The notes under the pieces are model-generated. The model saw only the letters and a list, made by a program, of their open reading frames with translations. It did not search any database and was not told the origin of the DNA. A stretch of 20,000 nucleotides of DNA, taken from the IMG/VR virus record IMGVR_UViG_3300030101_001550; one strand, given 5' to 3'. Below, one piece after another: positions 2,771 through 16,143 of the stretch. The DNA comes from an uncultured virus (IMG/VR IMGVR_UViG_3300030101_001550). Taxonomy: Duplodnaviria > Heunggongvirae > Uroviricota > Caudoviricetes. Both the position numbers and the translations under genes were made by a program. Each line of letters opens with the position of its first letter. The first letter of the stretch is position 1.

Positions 2771-3552
2771 AATATTTATTTTTTGATGTAGAAACAACTG
2801 GATTATGGAGGCGAGATTTAGAAGCTACAGATAAAAATCAACCTCGTATAGTTCAAATAGCAGCGCAATTAACAGATGAAAAAGAAAAAGTGCATGGACA
2901 ATTAGCGTGTATAGTTCAGCCAGATGGTTGGAAAATACCTAAAGAGGCGTCAGATATTCATAAAATAACTGAAGAAATAGCTTTGCAACATGGACTTCCT
3001 TTGATAAATGTGTTAAGTATGTTTAATTCTATGGCAGCACAAGCTGATGTATTAGTTGCTCATAACACTTCTTTTGACTTACAGATGGTGTTAAGAGAAT
3101 TTAATCACATAGGTAAAAATTTTAGAGCGCCTAAAACACAACATTGTACGATGATGACTGCGAAAGATATTCTAAAATTAGAAAGTGATTTTGACGATTA
3201 CAAATTTCCTAAATTAGAAGAAACATATAAACATTTTTTAGGTGGCGGTTATATGAATTGGCACGATGCACTAACTGATATTATAGTTTGTCGTATAATT
3301 TATTTCCACATGAAAGCGAAAGGAATAGAAATGGTAAAACCTAGAGATATGCCTAAAGCATTAATAAAAAACCTTGACGAAAAAGTGTTTAAAGAAGTAA
3401 AAAATCTTTTAGAATTATCAGATACGAAGGACTTAACAGATTGGGAAAGTAAATTTGTAAATGATCAGAAAGAAAGATTAGAGAAATATGGAGAAAAAAT
3501 ACTTATGAGTGATAAACAATTAAATGTATTGAGAAAGATAGCAGACAAATGA
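2767..3552 (+). CDS. DEDDh 3'-5' exonuclease (DnaQ/epsilon-like) with C-terminal helical extension
   Basis: ExoI FFDVETTG, ExoII AHNTSFD, ExoIII HDALTD. Start placed at ATG 2767 (GGAG 2757-2760) rather than TTG 2755. Confidence 0.88.
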   Translation: MKYLFFDVETTGLWRRDLEATDKNQPRIVQIAAQLTDEKEKVHGQLACIVQPDGWKIPKEASDIHKITEEIALQHGLPLINVLSMFNSMAAQADVLVAHNTSFDLQMVLREFNHIGKNFRAPKTQHCTMMTAKDILKLESDFDDYKFPKLEETYKHFLGGGYMNWHDALTDIIVCRIIYFHMKAKGIEMVKPRDMPKALIKNLDEKVFKEVKNLLELSDTKDLTDWESKFVNDQKERLEKYGEKILMSDKQLNVLRKIADK

Positions 3553-4511
3553 AGATAGTAGTAACAGGTGGCGCAGGATTTTTAGGCTCACATTTAGTAC
3601 AACATCTTGTACAAAAAGATCATGAGGTATATTCTATTGATAATTTTTTAACAGGTCAAGAAGAACACACTATATTTTGTGATAATTTTACTAAAGCAGA
3701 TATTTCTGATACTTACGATATGAAACAAGTATTTGAACAAATAAGTGCTAGTGGTCCAATAGATGTAATTTATAATTTAGCTTGTCCTGCAAGTCCTGAT
3801 CATTATCAAAAACATTCTCTTAAAACATTAGATACGTGTTACATGGGAGTTAAAAATATTTTAGAAGCAGCGAAGCAATCTAACGCTATGGTTATACATA
3901 CTTCAACTTCAGAAGTATATGGTAACCCTGATCATACTCCACAAGAAGAAACTTATTATGGAAATGTAAATTCTTTTGGACCACGTGCTTGTTATGACGA
4001 AGGCAAGAGAGTTGCTGAAGCACTTATATTTGAATATACTAGACTGTTTAAAACAGATGTTAAGATAGCTAGAATATTTAATACATACGGTCCTCGTATG
4101 TCTATACAAGATGGTAGAGTAATATCTAATTTTATATGTAACGCATTACAGAATAAAGACCTTTTACTTTATGGAGATGGAAATCAATCTCGTTCTTTTT
4201 GTTATGTAAGCGATACGATACATGGTTTATTGCAAATGATGAATACGACTAGATTAAAATTACCAATAAACATAGGTAATCCATCAGAGTATACAGTAAA
4301 AGAAATAGCAGAATTAGTAATTAGTATGACTGGTTCCACATCAGGAATCATGTCAGTATCACCAAAGAAAGATGATCCTTTACAAAGATGTCCAGATATA
4401 AATAGAGCAAAAGAACTTTTACATTGGACTCCAAGAGTAGGACTTGTAGATGGATTAAAGAAAACAGTAGAATATTTTGAAGAATGTTTACAGCAAGAGA
4501 TACAAACTTAA
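3549..4511 (+). CDS. uxs: UDP-glucuronate decarboxylase (UDP-xylose synthase), extended SDR family
   Basis: GGAGFLG NAD motif, NLACPASPDHYQ, STSEVYG, YYGNVNSFGPRACYDEGKRVAE (YxxxK), ARIFNTYGPRM, DGRVISNF, DDPLQRCPDI: the signature set of the UXS subfamily. Confidence 0.9.
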   Translation: MKIVVTGGAGFLGSHLVQHLVQKDHEVYSIDNFLTGQEEHTIFCDNFTKADISDTYDMKQVFEQISASGPIDVIYNLACPASPDHYQKHSLKTLDTCYMGVKNILEAAKQSNAMVIHTSTSEVYGNPDHTPQEETYYGNVNSFGPRACYDEGKRVAEALIFEYTRLFKTDVKIARIFNTYGPRMSIQDGRVISNFICNALQNKDLLLYGDGNQSRSFCYVSDTIHGLLQMMNTTRLKLPINIGNPSEYTVKEIAELVISMTGSTSGIMSVSPKKDDPLQRCPDINRAKELLHWTPRVGLVDGLKKTVEYFEECLQQEIQT

Positions 4512-5998
4512 TACTCGGTCCACCTGGAACTGGCAAGACAACTTCGTTACTTAACAAGTTAGAGAAAGAGATTGCTTCAGGAATACAGCCAATAAACATT
4601 GGTTTTGTTAGTTTTACAAAAAGAGCAATAAGAGAAGCACGAGAAAGAACTGTACAAAAATTCAACATTACAAACGAAAATGATTTAGATTATTTTAGAA
4701 CGTTGCATAGTTTGTGTTTTAGAACATTAGCTTTGAATGGAGAGCAAGTTTTTAAAGGTACACACATTACCGAATTTAAAAAGTTATTAAAGATAGAAAT
4801 GAGCGGTGGAGTTGACGAAGAAGAAATTGTACATTCAGGAACTAAATTAGGCGATCAAATGTTATTCTGCGATCAGTTAGCTAGAGCTACGTTACAACCC
4901 TTAAAAGAAATGTGGCGACACTTAGAGTTTGAATATTCTTGGAAAGAACAAGAGTTGTTTTCTAATACACTTATTAAATTTAAACAGAAAAGAGGTCTGT
5001 TAGATTTTACTGATATGTTACAAGAGTTTCTAGAAAGAGGCGACCCTCCTAAATTAAAAGTTTTATTTGTAGATGAAGCGCAAGACTTGACAATATTACA
5101 ATGGAAAGTTGTACAAAAACTTTCGCAAGATATTGATAAACTTTACATAGCAGGAGATGATGATCAAACTATTTATAAATGGGCTGGTGCTGATATAAAA
5201 ACATTTCTTAAATTAAAAGGTAATGTAGAAGTATTGCCGTATAGTTATAGACTGCCTAAAAAAGTATATGATCTTGCGATAAAGATAAGCTCACGAATAA
5301 AAAACAGATTTGATAAAGAGTGGAAAAGCAAGAAAGAAGAAGGCACGGTAAATTATGTATCGTCAATAGAATATATAGACATGAAAAAAGGGTCATGGCT
5401 CATCCTTACTCGATACAATTATCAACTTTCTCCTATACAAAAGTTTCTTAAAAATCAAGGGTTTGTATTCGAAAACAGATACGGCGGCTTCAAAGCTAAT
5501 AAACATGTGCAAGGTATTCGTGCTTGGAAAAAATTACATCAAGGAGAAAAACTTGTATATTCTGAAATCAAGAAATTATATTCTTGCTTGAGAACAGGAA
5601 CAGGTATAGAAAGAGGATTTAAGAATTTAAAAACTATTGACGAAAACGAACAGTATGAATTAGAAACTTTAGTCATGCATCATGGGTTGATAGCGCAAGG
5701 TCCGTGGCAACAAGCATTAGAAATGATACCAGAAGAAGATAAATTTTATTACGAAGCACTAGAAAAAACAGGAGATATTGATGAAGATAATCCTAGAATT
5801 AGAATAAGCACTATACATGGCAGCAAAGGTGCTGAAGCAGATAATGTTATTTTATTTACAGATGTTTCTTACAAGACTTGGAAAAACTTAGTTCAAGAGG
5901 ACGATGATGAGCATCGTGTTTTTTATGTTGGAATTACAAGAGTTAAAAACAATTTATTTATTGTAAATCCACAAACAGAATACAGTTATAGGATATAG
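4484..5998 (+). CDS. UvrD/Rep superfamily-1 DNA helicase
   Basis: Walker A GPPGTGKT, SFT, RTLHS, VDEAQD, AGDDDQTIY, SYR, STIHGSKGAE, YVGITR. Confidence 0.92.
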   Translation: MFTARDTNLILGPPGTGKTTSLLNKLEKEIASGIQPINIGFVSFTKRAIREARERTVQKFNITNENDLDYFRTLHSLCFRTLALNGEQVFKGTHITEFKKLLKIEMSGGVDEEEIVHSGTKLGDQMLFCDQLARATLQPLKEMWRHLEFEYSWKEQELFSNTLIKFKQKRGLLDFTDMLQEFLERGDPPKLKVLFVDEAQDLTILQWKVVQKLSQDIDKLYIAGDDDQTIYKWAGADIKTFLKLKGNVEVLPYSYRLPKKVYDLAIKISSRIKNRFDKEWKSKKEEGTVNYVSSIEYIDMKKGSWLILTRYNYQLSPIQKFLKNQGFVFENRYGGFKANKHVQGIRAWKKLHQGEKLVYSEIKKLYSCLRTGTGIERGFKNLKTIDENEQYELETLVMHHGLIAQGPWQQALEMIPEEDKFYYEALEKTGDIDEDNPRIRISTIHGSKGAEADNVILFTDVSYKTWKNLVQEDDDEHRVFYVGITRVKNNLFIVNPQTEYSYRI

Positions 5999-5999
5999 T

Positions 6000-6662
6000 A
6001 TGATAAATGAATACATGAAATATTTTTTACAAAAAATAGATAATGACATCTATGACGAACCTAAATCTCAATTACATTACAGTGTTATATTACCTATGAC
6101 AGGAAAAGTTTTAGCTGAGTACAATTTACAAACAACCGATAAGATATTAGACATGGGTTGCGGTGATGGATATTTTTTAAAATTATTAAAAGAAAAAGGA
6201 TTTACTAATTTAGTTGGAGTAACAAAAGCAGATAAAGATATAGAACGTTGCAAAGAAAAAGGTTTAGATGACATAAGAAAAATAGACATGACTTTTTCTG
6301 GTATAAAAGAAGAATTTGATTTTTTATGGTGTAGACATGCATTAGAGCATAGCCCTTTTCCTTATTTAACTTTACATGAATTTAATAGATTAGTTAAGAT
6401 GGACGGCGGAGCATATGTAGAAGTTCCCGCTGCTGTTAATGTAGCTAATCATGAAGATAACAGGAATCATTATTCTTTACTTACAAAAACTAATTGGATA
6501 GCATTGATGTTGCGTTCTGGTTTTGATGTAAGCAGTGTAGAAGAAATAAAGTTAGATATAAAAAATCCAAACTACAAAGATGGAGAAGCTTATCCAGAAA
6601 CATGGTGGGGATTTTATCTAAGAAAAACAGTAGAGCTTAATTTTATGAAAGGAGTATTATGA
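6000..6662 (+). CDS. Class I SAM-dependent methyltransferase (small-molecule/glycan type)
   Basis: ILDMGCGDG motif I, FDFLWCRHALEH, RLVKMDGGAYVEVP; no DPPY/NPPY or PC DNA-methylase motif. Confidence 0.85.
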   Translation: MINEYMKYFLQKIDNDIYDEPKSQLHYSVILPMTGKVLAEYNLQTTDKILDMGCGDGYFLKLLKEKGFTNLVGVTKADKDIERCKEKGLDDIRKIDMTFSGIKEEFDFLWCRHALEHSPFPYLTLHEFNRLVKMDGGAYVEVPAAVNVANHEDNRNHYSLLTKTNWIALMLRSGFDVSSVEEIKLDIKNPNYKDGEAYPETWWGFYLRKTVELNFMKGVL

Positions 6663-7717
6663 AAGCAATAGGAAGTTACATATTTGCTGGTGGTTTTACT
6701 ATTGGAGTTAAAAAACATTTTAATGTACTAGCGCACTTTGAAGGCGATGGATATGGCGCAGATACATTTAGTTTAAATTATCCAGAAATACCAGTTTTTG
6801 TTGGTCCAGAAAATTGGCCAACAGGAGATTATAAAGACATAGATTTTGTATATGGAAATCCACCTTGTGCGCCATGGAGCACACTAGGGTCAGGAAGTAA
6901 AGGAGCAGATGGTTGGAAATCAGATCCACGAGTAAGTTGTTGGAGCGATGTATTTTCTTTAATATATACAGTAAAACCAAAAGCTATCGCTATTGAGTCA
7001 GTTCCACGTGCTTATTCTCCAACAGGTGGATTACCGATGATAAAAGATTTTACAGAGAAAGCAAATAAAGAAGGTTATGCTGTTACACATCTTATGGTAG
7101 ATGGACAGTACACTGGTCTTAATCATACTAGGCGAAGATTCTTTTTCTTAGCTCATAAAGGTAAGTTCAGTCCTCCAGCACCAAACTGGAATCCATCACC
7201 AAATGTAGGCGATGTATTAGATGAGTTTAAAGCAGAACATGGTGGAGACCCTGGACATTATGGAAAACTAAGTGACAATGAAATGAAATTAGTAAAGATT
7301 GCGAAACCAGGAGAATCGTTAAGAAACATATGGGAAAGTTTAAACCCACCAGAAACTTGGAAAAGGTCAACTAAAGGACGAAAAGGAGTTATTGGTAGAC
7401 CACAATTTATGAAGTGGAGATTGACTAGAGAGCAAACTATGGGAGTAATAGCAGGAGGTTTTGCAATACATCCAGAAGAAGATAGACTTTTAGGTATAAG
7501 AGAATTGTGTGCTTTCTCTGGGTATCCAGTAGATTACAAATTTGCTGGAGCAAAATCAGGTTGGCCTAGCTTAATAGCAAGAGGCGTAATGCCACCAGTA
7601 GGCGAGTGGCTTGCGAGAAATGTAAAAGCTATGATAGAAACAGACGCTAAATACCACGTTGATTCTCAATTTATAGATTACAGAAAACCAGCAACAGGAG
7701 ATTTATTTAATGCTTAA
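6659..7717 (+). CDS. Divergent DNA (cytosine-C5) methyltransferase homologue
   Basis: Motif I-like YIFAGGF, IV GNPPC, VI IESV (canonical ENV), VIII HTRRRFF, IX RLLGIRELCAFSGYP, X IARGVMPP (canonical GNAV/GNSV). Confidence 0.85.
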   Translation: MKAIGSYIFAGGFTIGVKKHFNVLAHFEGDGYGADTFSLNYPEIPVFVGPENWPTGDYKDIDFVYGNPPCAPWSTLGSGSKGADGWKSDPRVSCWSDVFSLIYTVKPKAIAIESVPRAYSPTGGLPMIKDFTEKANKEGYAVTHLMVDGQYTGLNHTRRRFFFLAHKGKFSPPAPNWNPSPNVGDVLDEFKAEHGGDPGHYGKLSDNEMKLVKIAKPGESLRNIWESLNPPETWKRSTKGRKGVIGRPQFMKWRLTREQTMGVIAGGFAIHPEEDRLLGIRELCAFSGYPVDYKFAGAKSGWPSLIARGVMPPVGEWLARNVKAMIETDAKYHVDSQFIDYRKPATGDLFNA

Positions 7718-8090
7718 AGATATAGAAGAATTTCATAAGAAGTTTGATTTACCTAAACGTCATGGTATCAAGAATAATAAAGATATTGTAGACTTTAGGA
7801 TTAAATTTCTAGAAGAAGAATTAAGAGAATTAAAAGAAGGCGTTGAGAAAGACGATGACGCAAAGATTTTAGATTCTTTAGTAGACATAGTTTATGTAGC
7901 ACTCGGTACCGCTTATATATTTGACTATCCTTTTTGGATAGCATGGAAAGAAGTACAAGATGCTAACATGAAAAAAGAAAGAAAAGAAAGTGCTCGTTCT
8001 AAATTTGATGTAACAAAACCAGAAGGTTGGAAACATCCAGATATTGAGCAAGTGCTTAAAACATTTAAACATTGGAGTTCGTGGTCATGA
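7710..8090 (+). CDS. MazG-like all-alpha NTP pyrophosphohydrolase (candidate dCTPase)
   Basis: EEFHKKF, FLEEELREL, DSLVDIVYVALG, VQDANMKK, KPEGW: PRA-PH/MazG-like pattern. Substrate is inferred from context only. Confidence 0.8.
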   Translation: MLKDIEEFHKKFDLPKRHGIKNNKDIVDFRIKFLEEELRELKEGVEKDDDAKILDSLVDIVYVALGTAYIFDYPFWIAWKEVQDANMKKERKESARSKFDVTKPEGWKHPDIEQVLKTFKHWSSWS

Positions 8091-9121
8091 AAGTTTTAGT
8101 AACAGGGTTTACCTCTAAAGGTATTGGAACTAATAAAAATGTACTAGAAATAGCAACAGCAGCAAACTGTTTGCCTAGAGCATTAAGAGAATGTGGAATA
8201 GAAGTTGATCATAGAGTAGTAGTGCCTGGCGATGATATATCAGAATACGATAAAGTTGTTGTATTTGCATTTGCCCCTAATTCTTTACCGTCATCTTATT
8301 TGTATGGAGGTCTTTACACTTTATTAAAAAGACCTGACGCATATATTGCATTAGATGATTGGCAAACTAGAGATATACCTAATGGTTGTAGAACTTTTGC
8401 ACGTGAAGATCATTGGCGATTATGGAAAAGAGTAAGCAAAGCAGGTAATTCTGTAGGTAAAAAATTCTTTGACGAAGCACAGCCTTATAAAAAAGAAATG
8501 GAAGATTTAATTACAGAACTAGGTTTTAAGAAATGGAACTTTAAAGTATTAGCACCAATGTACGATGGTGGGGATAGTAGTCAGTTAGGAATAGATTGCG
8601 AAAAAATAATACCCTGGGATCCTACACCTGTTACTGATAGTTATAAAGAAAAAAGAAACAGTTTATTCTCTGCATTAGAACATACTGGTCCTAAAGAAAG
8701 AGAATGGATTATGGCTTCTCTTATACAAAAACAAAGTTGGCTTAATCGTCAAAACTTTACTTGGAAAGTAACTGGATATGGTAACGTAAATCTAGGCCAG
8801 CAACGAATCACAGAGCCAGAATTGTATAAAGAATACTTACGAGTAAGAGGAATACTTATACCTCCACACTATCATACGATAAAAGGTAGTGGCTGGTGGA
8901 GAGTTCGTTATGGAATGATAGCAGACGCAGGTTGCATAGCTTATGGCGATTTAGAAGAAACAAAACTATTTGGTTATTCTTACAAGATTAGAAATAACGA
9001 TATTGAGTACATGTCAGATAAAGGTTTAGATGACTTGGCTCAAGCACAAAAAGAAGATTTTATTTCTACAGTGTGGAATAAAAATAGATTAAATACGTTT
9101 ATCGGAGATAATTTTTTATGA
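8087..9121 (+). CDS. Putative GT-B glycosyltransferase, T4 DNA beta-glucosyltransferase-like
   Basis: 344 aa from ATG 8087 (ATGA overlap, GGAG 8074-8077). Collinear segments resemble T4 BGT as recalled from memory: MKVLVT, LRECGIEVD, DISEYDKVVVF, YIALDD, VTGYGN, GILIP...VRY..IADAGCIAYGD, AQAQKE. Confidence 0.6.
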   Translation: MKVLVTGFTSKGIGTNKNVLEIATAANCLPRALRECGIEVDHRVVVPGDDISEYDKVVVFAFAPNSLPSSYLYGGLYTLLKRPDAYIALDDWQTRDIPNGCRTFAREDHWRLWKRVSKAGNSVGKKFFDEAQPYKKEMEDLITELGFKKWNFKVLAPMYDGGDSSQLGIDCEKIIPWDPTPVTDSYKEKRNSLFSALEHTGPKEREWIMASLIQKQSWLNRQNFTWKVTGYGNVNLGQQRITEPELYKEYLRVRGILIPPHYHTIKGSGWWRVRYGMIADAGCIAYGDLEETKLFGYSYKIRNNDIEYMSDKGLDDLAQAQKEDFISTVWNKNRLNTFIGDNFL

Positions 9122-9756
9122 GAGATGTAAGCGATATAATCAAAGGTATAATTATAATAGAAGGTGCAGACTGTACTGGTAAAACTACTCTTGCTAAATA
9201 TCTATGCGATAAATTTAAAGCAAGATATATGCATTTAAGAATACATAAGAAGATGGAGATATGGCATACTGCAACTGTTCGTAGAGCAATAAGACTTGCT
9301 AAAAAAGAATTAGTTGTAATAGATAGACACTGGCCATCAGAAGAAACTTATGCTTACGAAAGAGCAGACGGTCCAGAATATAATCCTAAAGAATTATACA
9401 AAAAACTAAAAGAAGCAAATACTTTATATGTGTGGTGTGCACCTGAAGATAGCAGTAAAGTTATTAACATGCATAAGAATAAAAAACTAGAACGTCACGA
9501 AGAATACAGTGACATATCCAAAGTTGTAGAGAGATATAGACGTTCATGGTACGGTAATAATAACGAACATAAAAACTTCTTATCATCTCTCGGTATGTTA
9601 AAAGAAAGGTCTAACTTTATTCGCTACGATGTATTTAAAGAAGGTAGCATGATAGACGTAAAAGTATATACGATAATAAATAGATTACGATACTTGAAAG
9701 GAGAATGCCCATGGAACGAATCGATGTCAAACTTTCCGCTGACAATGAGTGGTTAG
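9118..9756 (+). CDS. dNMP (thymidylate-kinase-like) kinase
   Basis: P-loop IIIEGADCTGKTT, VIDRHWPSE (TMPK DR motif); adjacent to the TS-like gene. Confidence 0.8.
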   Translation: MRDVSDIIKGIIIIEGADCTGKTTLAKYLCDKFKARYMHLRIHKKMEIWHTATVRRAIRLAKKELVVIDRHWPSEETYAYERADGPEYNPKELYKKLKEANTLYVWCAPEDSSKVINMHKNKKLERHEEYSDISKVVERYRRSWYGNNNEHKNFLSSLGMLKERSNFIRYDVFKEGSMIDVKVYTIINRLRYLKGECPWNESMSNFPLTMSG

Positions 9757-10538
9757 ATGCTATTAAAGATATAAATCATGGTAAGTGGACAAGACCACGT
9801 GGTTTAGAAACACTTGAAAAAATAAATCATACTACAATGTGCGATATGAGATATCCCGTTATAACTAACAAAAAGAGAGAACTTGGCTACAGGTTTATGG
9901 TAGCAGAAGCACACTGGATTCTTACTGGAAATAATAAATTATCTACAATAAAACCTTTCTCTAAAAACATAGCTAGATTTAGCGATGATGGTTATTTCTT
10001 TAGAGGAGCATATGGTCCTAAGATAGTTGATCAACTTCAGTACGTGTGTAGAATATTAAATGACGATATAAATACACGTCAAGCTGTTATAAATATATGG
10101 AGAGAAAGTCCTTACGATACTGACGATGTACCCTGCACTATCTCTTTTCAATTTCTTATTAGAGAGAACAAACTAAATGTTATCGCTAATATGCGTTCAA
10201 ACGATTTATGGCTAGGTTGGCCTTACGATAATTTTAACTTCTCAATGCTAGGTGCGTATGTCGCATTACTTATGTGGGATATTTATAGAATGGATTTAGA
10301 CTTAGGAGTTACTGTAATCAATGCTGGCTCTCGTCATTTATATCAATCTGATCATGATAAAGCTTTAGAATGTGTAAAAGCAGGAGAGAATGATTTCTAT
10401 GATTATAGACCTTTAAACATTAAAGATTTTAGAAATAGCATGAGTACGAGTGCTAATAATCTTCTTGATCATCTAGCTTACTGTACTGAGGGTTGGAAAG
10501 CCGATAGTCAGTTCTTACACGAGTTCTTTGAGATATGA
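9711..10538 (+). CDS. Thymidylate-synthase-fold enzyme, probable dCMP hydroxymethylase-type
   Basis: AEAHW, FSDDG...GAYGP, TRQA, catalytic PCT (Cys codon 10134), MRSNDLWLGWPYD with Asp (10227-10229) at the TS Asn177-equivalent position, SRHLY. The RBS AAAGGAG spacing favours ATG 9711 over 9705. Confidence 0.85.
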   Translation: MERIDVKLSADNEWLDAIKDINHGKWTRPRGLETLEKINHTTMCDMRYPVITNKKRELGYRFMVAEAHWILTGNNKLSTIKPFSKNIARFSDDGYFFRGAYGPKIVDQLQYVCRILNDDINTRQAVINIWRESPYDTDDVPCTISFQFLIRENKLNVIANMRSNDLWLGWPYDNFNFSMLGAYVALLMWDIYRMDLDLGVTVINAGSRHLYQSDHDKALECVKAGENDFYDYRPLNIKDFRNSMSTSANNLLDHLAYCTEGWKADSQFLHEFFEI

Positions 10539-12403
10539 GTTTATTTTCGCCTAGCAGCGATTGGAAACCTAGAGAAATATTAATTGATTATTCTAACTCT
10601 AAATACATTGCTGTAGACACTGAAACATACGACCCTAATCTAAAGAGTAATGGACCTGGTGGTTTTAAGAAAGATGGATTTGTAGTTGGCATATCTCTAT
10701 GCGATGAGCATAATAGAATGTGTTACTTGCCGATACGCCATCAAGGAGGCGGTAATCTTCCTGAAGAACTAGTCATATCGTATTTAAAAAACGTCCTTGA
10801 GAACTCTAAAACGAAAGTATTTGCGAATGCTCTCTATGATTTAGAGTGGCTATCAACTTTAGGAGTAAATACTCAAGGAAGCATATTCGATATTCAAGTT
10901 GCAGAAACATTGATAAACGAGAATAGAAAATCATTCTCTCTTGATAACATATCATACGATTACTTGAGAGAGAAAAAAGACGAAACATTATTAGAAGATG
11001 CGGTCCGAAGCATGGTATCTGCGAGGGCTAACGTAAAACAAAACTTGTGGAAATTACACTCGTCATACGTTGGTCCTTACGCAGAGAAAGATGCTGAGTT
11101 GACTATGAGAGTATTTTTATTGCAACTACCGATACTTGAGAAAGAGGAATTAACAAAAGTCATGAAGATAGAATCAAGGCTCATCCCTCTATTATTGTCT
11201 ATGAGACAGAAAGGTGTTCGTGTTGATATTGAGAAAGCAGCGAAGCTTCGGGATACGCTAGTTAAAAAACAAGATCAAGTTCAAGCAGAACTTAATTCGA
11301 TAGCAGGTCAAGAAGTAAATGTATGGGCTAATGCAAGTATTGCGAAAGCATATGAAAAAGAAAACATAACTTTCTTGCGAACTGCAAAAGGCTCGCCATC
11401 ATTTACACAAGACTGGTTAGAGAGTGCACAAGATAACTTGAGTGGTTTAGTTTTAAAAGTGCGTAAACTGTATAAGTTGAGAAGTACATTCATTGAGAAC
11501 ATGATTATTGGAAAATCAGTAAATGGTAGAATACATAGTCAATTACATTCTACAGGAACAGTTACGGGTAGATTCAGTTCATCACATCCTAATTTGCAAC
11601 AAGTACCTGCTCATGATCCTGAGTTAGCGCCTTTGGTGCGAGGTCTATTTATTCCTGAAGATGGACACGAATGGGTATGTGTAGATTATGCACAACAAGA
11701 GCCTAGACTTCTTGTACACTTTGCAAGTCAGACGAATAATGAATCAGCAAAATTGGCACAAAATCAGTACAAAAATGATACATCTACAGACTTTCATACT
11801 ATGGTTGCGAACATGGCAAAAATCAAGAGAAAACAAGCAAAAACTATAAATCTTGGACTTACATATGGCATGGGAAAAAAGAAATTAGCAGCAGAATTAG
11901 GACTATCGTATGATGATGCAGAAATGTTATTTGAGAAGTATCATCGTAACGTGCCTTTCGTTCAAGCATTAAATAATCAAGTTGTGGCACTCGCTTCTTC
12001 TCGTGGATACATTAGAACATTATTAGGTAGACGCAGACATTTTAATTTGTACGAGCCAGGTGGTTGGGATAACTTTGGTAAGCCTGCTTATCCTTATGAA
12101 AAAGCAAAAGAAGTGTATAAAGATTTGCCATTGAAAAGAGCATATACACATAAAGCTTTGAATTGTTTAATACAAGGATCAGCTGCTGATGTTACAAAAG
12201 CTGCGATGTTAGAAGTATGGGATAACAAAGTTATGGACATAGGACTAACGATACATGATGAGTTAGATTTTTCTGTGCCTAAAAGCAAAGAGGGAGAAGA
12301 AAAATTAAAAGAAGTTGTACACTTAATGAAAAATGCAGTAAAGTTAAATGTACCTTTACAGGTAGACGTAGAAAGAGGAGCCAGTTGGGGAGAGATTAAG
12401 TGA
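10535..12403 (+). CDS. polA: Family A DNA polymerase with 3'-5' exonuclease domain (Leu762 type)
   Basis: DTET exo I, TGRFSSSHPNLQQVP, motif A DYAQQEPR, motif B RKQAKTINLGLTYGMG, IQGSAAD, motif C IHDEL. Confidence 0.95.
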   Translation: MSLFSPSSDWKPREILIDYSNSKYIAVDTETYDPNLKSNGPGGFKKDGFVVGISLCDEHNRMCYLPIRHQGGGNLPEELVISYLKNVLENSKTKVFANALYDLEWLSTLGVNTQGSIFDIQVAETLINENRKSFSLDNISYDYLREKKDETLLEDAVRSMVSARANVKQNLWKLHSSYVGPYAEKDAELTMRVFLLQLPILEKEELTKVMKIESRLIPLLLSMRQKGVRVDIEKAAKLRDTLVKKQDQVQAELNSIAGQEVNVWANASIAKAYEKENITFLRTAKGSPSFTQDWLESAQDNLSGLVLKVRKLYKLRSTFIENMIIGKSVNGRIHSQLHSTGTVTGRFSSSHPNLQQVPAHDPELAPLVRGLFIPEDGHEWVCVDYAQQEPRLLVHFASQTNNESAKLAQNQYKNDTSTDFHTMVANMAKIKRKQAKTINLGLTYGMGKKKLAAELGLSYDDAEMLFEKYHRNVPFVQALNNQVVALASSRGYIRTLLGRRRHFNLYEPGGWDNFGKPAYPYEKAKEVYKDLPLKRAYTHKALNCLIQGSAADVTKAAMLEVWDNKVMDIGLTIHDELDFSVPKSKEGEEKLKEVVHLMKNAVKLNVPLQVDVERGASWGEIK

Positions 12404-15615: not shown

Positions 15616-16143
15616 ATGAATATCTTTTATTTACACAAAGACCCGATACAAGCTGCAGAGTGGCATTGCGATAAGCACGTTTGTAAGATGATTATCGAGT
15701 CTGCTCAAATGCTTAGCATCGTAACACGTCAGAAAAATATTGACTTAGGGTATAATATGTCTACCACAGGTGCTTTCTCCAAGCATCCACAAACTATATG
15801 GGTAGGTAAAAGTGGCGAACATTTCGAATGGTTAGTATGGCTAGGTATAGCTTTATGCAGACAATATAAATTTAGATACGACAAAGTACATAAGACTAGT
15901 AAACTAATGACTGACTTCTTCATGTTATTAAATGACGACTTTTATCACAAGTTCGAAGAACAAGGGTTCAGGGATCCTCCTCAATGTATGCCAGAAGAAT
16001 ACAAAAGAGATACGACAATAGAAGGTTATAAAAACTTCTACATCCAAGAAAAGTCTAGATTTGCCAAGTGGTATGGTGGCTACGATAAAGCACCGCCATG
16101 GTGGCCTGAAGATAAAAAGGTTTTAAATGTTACTAAAAAATAG
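15616..16143 (+). CDS. Pyrimidine-dimer DNA glycosylase (DenV/endonuclease V)-like family protein
   Basis: MNIFYL...AAEWHCDKHVCKMIIESAQMLS, HPQTIW, LCRQYKFRYDKVH, PPQCMPEEYK, YKNFY..EK, PPWW. Confidence 0.7.
   Translation: MNIFYLHKDPIQAAEWHCDKHVCKMIIESAQMLSIVTRQKNIDLGYNMSTTGAFSKHPQTIWVGKSGEHFEWLVWLGIALCRQYKFRYDKVHKTSKLMTDFFMLLNDDFYHKFEEQGFRDPPQCMPEEYKRDTTIEGYKNFYIQEKSRFAKWYGGYDKAPPWWPEDKKVLNVTKK

Follow-up and report, generated by a model that had tools for sequence, protein, structure and literature searches.

Our analysis of the window, a stretch of 20,000 nucleotides from an uncultured virus of the Caudoviricetes (IMG/VR record IMGVR_UViG_3300030101_001550), suggests that the gene cluster between its helicase and polA genes, together with a UDP-xylose synthase gene (uxs) just upstream of the helicase, encodes a DNA hypermodification pathway with 5-hydroxymethylcytosine (hmC) carrying xylose as its predicted product. 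The two parts of this prediction, which was put forward in a preliminary description of the locus, fared differently. Formation of hmC and its glycosylation are well supported, that is, by active-site signatures and by a glycosyltransferase (GT) fold resembling T4 β-glucosyltransferase (BGT), whereas the identification of the sugar as xylose is nearly a toss-up, because its support consists of one phylogenetic contrast and one extra case. Xylosyl-hmC as the product of the cluster is hence a prediction for which we see about even chances.

That hmC is incorporated into the phage DNA is, judged from the signatures, highly probable. In an alignment to thymidylate synthase (TS) of E. coli, residues D141, C144, D167 and D175 of the TS-fold enzyme correspond to L143D, C146, D169 (kept) and N177D, so that the dCMP-specifying Asp recognized in the preliminary description is indeed present at position 177, and L143D, D169 and N177D recur in every aligned full-length copy from the two groups of related loci defined below (clades A and B). 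According to the signature rules in PMC13326640, L143D and N177D combined with D169 denote a dCMP hydroxymethylase and D169N the hydroxylase of arabinosylating phages; by these rules the enzyme is predicted to be a dCMP hydroxymethylase. Assignment as a 5-hydroxy-dCMP synthase of the RB69/DLP3 type was rejected, D167 being retained in the window and in clades A and B, and the D169N exchange of a control TS from phage Rgz1 was visible in the same comparison. The best match among solved structures is the CMP hydroxymethylase MilA (E 1.5e-20, versus 9e-11 for ThyA). In five distant loci ThyX is also encoded beside this type of TS, which is thus not the source of dTMP there. The adjacent MazG/PRA-PH-like protein is a putative dCTPase that would remove dCTP, and the P-loop kinase a putative hmdCMP kinase; in MetaGPA, a contig enriched for modified cytosine is recognizable by TS with Asp177, PRA-PH and dCMP deaminase.

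Reduced versions of this gene set occur in other phages. The T7-like Pelagibacter phages HTVC200P (L102:7487-8765) and HTVC119P (L103:7487-8771) possess only the kinase and a L143D/D169/N177D TS, and are candidates for partial, unglycosylated hmC. The loci L104:5647-9681 (AXL3) and L106:5939-9181 combine a class I methyltransferase (MTase), a pyrophosphatase, a kinase, an hmC-type TS and a deaminase without a GT, and might make O-methylated hmC.

The GT has no Pfam match and a single, unannotated PHROG match, and its profile found no match among the sequences of the Protein Data Bank (PDB). Its structure model (built from 116 sequences; predicted local distance difference test score, pLDDT, 93.6) suggests a GT-B fold that is nearest to T4 BGT: a fold search (VIA) placed 1c3j at rank 1 (Z 17.0, rmsd 3.7, 284 aligned residues), and Foldseek ranks 1-6 are all T4 BGT. 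The lead over the next fold (Z 15.4) is modest, and the fold does not give the donor. Residue D96, conserved at 90% or more, is a possible counterpart of D100, the catalytic Asp of T4 BGT. The GT has 554 relatives at E<=0.001, and 42 phage records contain a homologue. Its gene neighbourhoods are more telling than the fold. In four of the seven phages in which we viewed the gene neighbourhood (FBB1, Aeromonas phage 25, C48C1 and DSL-LC01) the homologue adjoins a UDP-galactopyranose mutase (UGM) gene and in Rgz1 an arabinose-5-phosphate isomerase gene, while in BlueNGold and MW202657 no recognised sugar gene lies beside it. The cultured phages Erwinia FBB1 (L017:6940-9065), Aeromonas phage 25 (L019:6896-9077) and DSL-LC01 (L020:7992-11137) combine GT and mutase with a D169/N177D TS, FBB1 and phage 25 encoding a T4-type gp42, and galactofuranosyl-hmC is predicted for all three. 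In C48C1 (L022:6586-10033), the genome of which gave no TS match, genes for a TET/JBP dioxygenase, a member of the GT family and UGM are consecutive; here the family would serve a post-replicative route.

The identity of uxs, described at the outset as a UDP-xylose synthase gene upstream of the helicase in the same operon, is upheld by the match of its product to structures of human UXS1 (E 2.4e-89, with the next family at 1e-34) and by the motifs TSEVYG and CYDEGKR, which are identical to those of UXS1 and retained in 12 of 12 aligned related copies. GT alleles with uxs constitute clade A, and sister alleles with a UDP-glucose dehydrogenase (UGD) gene constitute clade B; the latter, found by a scan with the C5-cytosine methyltransferase (C5-MTase) homologue, share the same core, have UGD after polA, and lack both uxs and the class I S-adenosylmethionine (SAM)-dependent MTase. 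Counted over the 76 loci in which both slots are visible (shorter loci were omitted), which comprise 44 distinct GT alleles, many of them near copies, 17 alleles go with uxs, 27 with UGD, none with both and none with neither. A NadE-like amidotransferase accompanies UGD in 19/27 clade B alleles and another epimerase in 3/27; UGD plus amidotransferase after polA are exemplified by L054:16194-17480 and L043:9238-10014 (among L035-L075 and like loci). For clade B we predict glucuronosyl-hmC, possibly amidated to the uronamide. As far as gene content indicates, both clades would act on UDP-glucuronate, which clade B makes and clade A decarboxylates.

Outside these clades, a true uxs overlaps the end of a fusion of C5-MTase homologue and GT in the distant 72 kb phage L115, in a different gene order. 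Its uxs is 48% identical to that of the window and its polA, of an unrelated lineage, only 24%, so that L115 represents one independent case of uxs with GT. Co-variation of the two genes, a check proposed in the preliminary description, tends to favour that description, since uxs and UGD never occur together and uxs stands beside a GT in L115, yet it amounts to one phylogenetic contrast and that one case. A uxs scan of viral contigs gave two near-identical loci only, and a phage collection gave 10 matches, three of which were inspected. In Yong-DA uxs belongs to a polysaccharide locus; in LR756500 its neighbours are replication genes, and 17 kb of sequence gave neither a TS nor a GT match. A GT of this family is absent from the QdP_Psa3 and LR756500 stretches as judged by profile search and from Yong-DA as judged by annotation only. 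In the cultured Pseudomonas phage QdP_Psa3 (L108:2691-11540), a TS with L143D/N177 (hmU type; hmU, hydroxymethyluracil), an HD nucleotidase, a kinase, a uxs-like gene and UGD are clustered without a GT of this family in 14.8 kb, making this phage a candidate for a pentose on hmU.

The class I SAM-MTase accompanies 16/17 uxs alleles and 0/27 UGD alleles; it is absent in the loci L011, L012 and L185. Identity with CmoA was rejected (15.9 bits versus a cut-off of 193.3), and its Atlas matches are generic viral class I MTase clusters only. We regard it as an accessory enzyme, possibly a sugar O-methylase; in two GT relatives (P0115 and P0146) the GT is joined to a class I MTase domain.

Canonical C5-MTases are characterized by FxGxG in motif I, by the motif ENV and by an Asn in motif X. 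The homologue encoded in the cluster has a C5-MTase fold in its model (pLDDT 94.5) and retains the catalytic residues, with C70 and E113 each found in 118/120 homologues and R158 and R160 in 120/120. Its assignment as a canonical C5-cytosine methyltransferase was nonetheless rejected since all three motifs are altered: the motif I Gly is replaced by F9 (F/Y in 117/120 homologues), ENV by ESV (S in 118/120), and the motif X Asn by R308 (R/Q/K in 115/120, with R in 92, Q in 17, K in 6 and a gap in 4). R308 aligns gap-free to R350 of SpCmoX (8yf3), the best PDB sequence match (E 1.1e-8); R350 binds the carboxylate of carboxy-SAM (Cx-SAM), its HhaI counterpart being N304, as stated in PMC12783734. 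The SPPC motif that serves to recognize CmoX candidates is replaced by NPPC (N67 in 118/120 homologues), and CmoA, which usually though not necessarily accompanies CmoX in phages, was found in 0/5 related genomes. The sequence thus resembles CmoX at the R350 site and, because SPPC is missing and CmoA was not found, we do not assign it to CmoX. The protein is probably not a plain methylase, and the 'further methylation' envisaged in the preliminary description, which underrated this enzyme, is too simple a role for a protein with a rebuilt cofactor pocket.

The association of the homologue with the GT includes gene fusions, seen in 16 of the 150 GT representatives listed (BLAST; 17 by profile), three of which have a uracil-DNA glycosylase (UDG) domain in between. 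Across 35 distant loci with the homologue, TS is found in 28, GT in 12 and TS without GT in 19, so the homologue is linked more closely to the hydroxymethylase than to glycosylation. Its slot is taken by a class I MTase in AXL3 and MW202510, and HTVC200P and HTVC119P have kinase and TS only. A predicted complex of the homologue with the GT scored 0.00 and carries no weight either way. Among the relatives, P0018, P0041, P0052 and P0218 have the C5-MTase-like domain fused to a UDG domain, with the GT next in three, and an intein lies within the PPC motif region in P0012 and P0018. The locus L151, whose TS carries Asp177, encodes a 5-hmdU DNA kinase helical domain directly upstream of a C5-MTase-like gene (L151:9091-10002).

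Both clades are almost devoid of CGCG and of CGWCG. CGCG occurs once in the window (17916), once in the 64 kb genome G005 and once in the 61 kb genome G007. Its observed/expected ratio across 13 clade A loci is 0.01, and across 21 clade B loci 0.04, compared with 1.14 in 023Pt_psg01, 1.29 in HTVC200P and 0.40 in HTVC023P. Codon shuffling of the window gave 7.6 expected CGCG (sd 2.6) versus 1 observed and 5.9 expected CGWCG (sd 2.3) versus 0, with 0/300 shuffles as low; GATC and CCGG are likewise low by this measure, and the CG content of the window and of G007 is normal. Distant carriers of the C5-MTase homologue show no loss of CGCG, and in HTVC023P, which is free of the cluster, CGACG is depleted too (1 versus 9). 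Traces of C-to-T change at CGCG are ambiguous: there is an excess of TGACG, but controls show raised GGCG as well.

Combining these observations, we propose that the MazG-like enzyme would hydrolyse dCTP to dCMP and that the TS homologue, in which the signature is seen, would hydroxymethylate dCMP; the kinase and the host nucleoside diphosphate kinase would then yield hmdCTP for incorporation by polA. After replication the GT, BGT-like in its modelled fold, would transfer xylose from UDP-xylose, the presumed donor, to the hydroxymethyl group, with the phage uxs converting host UDP-glucuronate into UDP-xylose. The C5-MTase homologue would belong to the same pathway, most likely using an anionic SAM analogue, e.g., carboxy-SAM, on unreplaced cytosines, or else acting on hmC, and the class I MTase would contribute an optional additional step. 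Pyle et al. found that, in one class, the majority of GTs require their partner epimerase.

A number of findings weigh against this proposal. The uxs/UGD split is a single change on the polA tree (25 rows); uxs was found in just 1/35 distant loci with the C5-MTase homologue, 12 of which have a GT; and the helicase stands between uxs and the GT. UGD was found in 0/5 uxs-bearing genomes searched and neither in G001 nor in G015, so that the host must supply UDP-glucuronate. Although 13 fixed GT residue differences separate clades A and B, no donor-specific residue was found, and none is shared by the two uxs lineages to the exclusion of the others. Moreover, fully replaced cytosine would leave the C5-MTase homologue without substrate, and the simplest cause of the avoidance of CGCG, host restriction, speaks against full shielding of the DNA. 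Finally, a GT-A-like gene (phrog_1574, with a weak Anp1 match) lies between structural-module adaptor genes (L095:7664-8449, L090:11747-12583 and L100:4353-5168); it possibly encodes a virion glycosyltransferase, which could consume the uxs-derived sugar instead. We consider it possible, but unlikely, that hmC carries a host sugar (glucose or glucuronate) and that uxs serves virion-protein glycosylation via the GT-A-like enzyme or drains host UDP-glucuronate. The presence of the GT-A-like gene in G005, G007 and G010, the complete related genomes used for genome-wide questions, and the many distant GT carriers with no sugar gene nearby (L113, L114, L116, L117, L127 and L158-L171) agree with a host sugar, and hexuronic acid on hmC is already known. 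However, the GT-A-like gene does not track uxs, being found in both clades and in HTVC023P/027P, where uxs gave no match at E<=1e-40, and uxs is kept within the replication operon in 17/17 clade A alleles and, in L115, immediately follows the GT. Somewhat less probable still is a uxs-derived sugar other than plain xylose, be it O-methyl-xylose, with the class I MTase as the methylating enzyme, or a pentose that host enzymes alter further: the distribution of that MTase, its fusion to GT relatives and the furanose-supplying genes beside cultured GT homologues would fit, but its absence from L011, L012 and L185 does not, and neither G005 nor G007 has a further epimerase or mutase among the scanned open reading frames (ORFs) of at least 130 aa. 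As to the base, hmU formed by way of the relatives' dCMP deaminase is very improbable. The deaminase gene does follow TS, preceding polA, in 43/44 GT alleles of the phage group, and SPO1-type enzymes are among the TS matches (~29% identity), yet Asp, which determines the use of dCMP, occupies position 177, and the window has no deaminase gene at the TS-polA junction, which contigs from runs X3 and X4 span.

One does not expect a C5 writer where cytosine is replaced; either some cytosine must escape replacement or hmC must be the substrate of the enzyme. The former could involve, compatibly with xylosyl-hmC, a CmoX-like layer in which the homologue carboxymethylates the remaining cytosines with host carboxy-SAM, possibly at CGCG/CGWCG. 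We rate this possible though clearly short of an even chance. The Arg at the SpCmoX R350 position, shared by 92/120 homologues, and the near loss of CGCG from both clades are in accord with it, CGCG being alternatively viewed as the target of the phage's own enzyme; against it stand NPPC in place of SPPC, the lack of CmoA in the five genomes, the unaffected CGCG of distant carriers, and the NadE-like ligase, which follows UGD (19/27) and not the homologue (0/17 uxs alleles). In addition, since CGCG is among the motifs often methylated in marine prokaryotes, host restriction could explain its avoidance. It is more speculative, and in our estimate doubtful, that the rebuilt enzyme represents a new writer for hmC phages acting beside xylosyl-hmC formation, in which the Cys/Glu/Arg set activates hmC or leftover cytosine for a non-methyl group from a non-SAM cofactor. 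At hmC, C5-MTases carry out addition, removal and thiol exchange without a cofactor. If the reading is true, TS-based replacement and C5-MTase chemistry would meet in one pathway throughout a broad range of phages, and an exchangeable gene (uxs, UGD with or without amidotransferase, or UGM) would determine the sugar.

Table 1. Genes of the proposed pathway and the adjoining replication genes in the window.
Gene product	Position	Strand	Length	Matches	Remarks
uxs, UDP-glucuronate decarboxylase (UDP-xylose synthase)	3549..4511	+	320 aa		proposed supplier of the sugar donor
UvrD-type helicase	4484..5998	+		Pfam UvrD E 3.7e-32	replication backbone, between uxs and cluster
Class I SAM-dependent methyltransferase	6000..6662	+	220 aa	Methyltransf_23 E 2.7e-15	
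C5-cytosine methyltransferase homologue	6659..7717	+		Pfam DNA_methylase E 1.4e-26	rebuilt cofactor pocket
MazG/PRA-PH-like NTP pyrophosphohydrolase	7710..8090	+	126 aa	PRA-PH E 2.4e-8; phrog_671 E 1.4e-25	
GT-B glycosyltransferase	8072..9121	+			likely start ATG 8087; fold from model
P-loop dNMP kinase, thymidylate-kinase-like	9118..9756	+		phrog_761 E 6.5e-11; TIGR00041 below cut-off	
TS-fold enzyme	9705..10538	+			dCMP hydroxymethylase signature: D141, C144, D167, D175
Family A DNA polymerase (polA)	10535..12403	+		DNA_pol_A E 1.2e-71	HTVC023P-like backbone

The ORFs of 3549..10538 were confirmed at their described positions on the + strand (Table 1), and they overlap or abut from exo to polA, the successive junctions being -4, -28, +1, -4, -8, -19, -4, -52 and -4 nt. 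For the GT, ATG 8087 (overlap -4) is a likelier start than 8072, because homologues align from residue 6. Pfam, PHROGs and NCBIfam are concordant for all cluster genes except the GT and uphold the family assignments first made, the GT-B fold coming from the model and the fold search. The gene order is kept in 16 related viral contigs as far as each extends. The polA product is 39-44% identical to those of 023Pt_psg01, HTVC027P and HTVC023P (identity as DpoZ was rejected at 351.5 bits versus a cut-off of 500), and HTVC023P-type marine phages have the UvrD helicase with no cluster between it and polA. The stretch was found, whole or in part, in 20/24 listed runs from 9 studies, 18 of the 20 being labelled marine or seawater metagenome and one possibly being the run from which the window comes; the RNA run X20 yielded just three short contigs. 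Within the window, a promoter and terminator scan gave matches at chance level, and no tRNA genes were found. A pyrimidine-dimer glycosylase-like gene lies at 15616-16143 (Pyr_excise E 0.0013, below cut-off; phrog_624), with a similar gene near the cluster in DSL-LC01, and the clade B genome G010 has a carbamoyltransferase gene among three 2OG-Fe(II) oxygenase genes in its tail region, on the opposite strand (L099:16093-19210).

The locus offers a small gene set for directly testing the sugar on hmC, and its GT family a predicted natural series with xylose here, glucuronate or its amide in clade B, and galactofuranose in the cultured phages of Aeromonas and Erwinia. If this series holds, it shows marine phages varying their DNA sugar coats against modification-dependent nucleases, and the family could yield new enzymes for labelling hmC; the methylase-like protein may extend the chemistry beyond CmoX. 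As to precedent, the view that no xylosylated base had been described needs qualification: in PMC12838424, a 'deoxypentose, putatively xylose' is proposed on cytosine of the Shewanella phage Thanatos, one enzyme of which made UDP-xylose in vitro. Xylosylation was not demonstrated there, however, no xylosylated dC being obtained in vitro, and PMC13326640 describes Thanatos as mono-arabinosylated, with a D169N TS. In the literature searched, with most subscription papers and the bioRxiv supplements outside its scope, we found no demonstrated xylose on a DNA base, the results being RB69, Thanatos and a giant-virus review.

Comparison with other systems places the locus as follows. The clusters for arabinosyl-5-hydroxycytosine (RB69, DLP3, HY126) and the galactosyl-5-hydroxycytosine of RL38JI share with it, according to PMC13326640, adjacent kinase, GT and TS genes, a phage-made UDP-sugar and a pentose, predicted in our case, on a modified cytosine. 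Their TS enzymes have D169N and perform flavin-dependent hydroxylation, whereas the window TS keeps D169, so that the resemblance to RB69 is weaker than the preliminary description stated; the window cluster also lacks the arabinose-5-phosphate isomerase, HAD phosphatase and pyrophosphorylase of these clusters, and the GT of HY126 reaches only Z 12.7 against our GT model. With CmoX of Synechococcus phage S-B43 (8YF3; PMC12783734) the C5-MTase homologue shares the fold and the Arg at the HhaI N304 site; it differs in NPPC and ESV, in motif I, in the lack of CmoA, in its linkage to a dCMP hydroxymethylase and in relatives fused to GT or UDG. TET-linked phage GT clusters (bioRxiv 10.1101/2023.12.21.572611, main text) have in common a GT dependent on a neighbouring sugar-nucleotide enzyme, and the hexuronosyl-hmC observed there is the type of product predicted for clade B, but hmC is made post-replicatively, and the words 'xylose' and 'pentose' are absent from that main text. 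The glucosyl-hmC pathway of T4 requires the same functional set (gp56 dCTPase, gp42, gp1 and BGT) and has a TS with L143D/D169/N177D as well as the GT fold nearest to ours. The window differs from T4 in its PolA podovirus-like backbone, a TS nearer MilA than ThyA, a GT just 14% identical to BGT, a UDP-xylose synthase of its own, and the additional C5-MTase-like and class I MTase genes. The logic of the pathway is that of T4; the sugar predicted is new, and one enzyme comes in addition whose role is unexplained.

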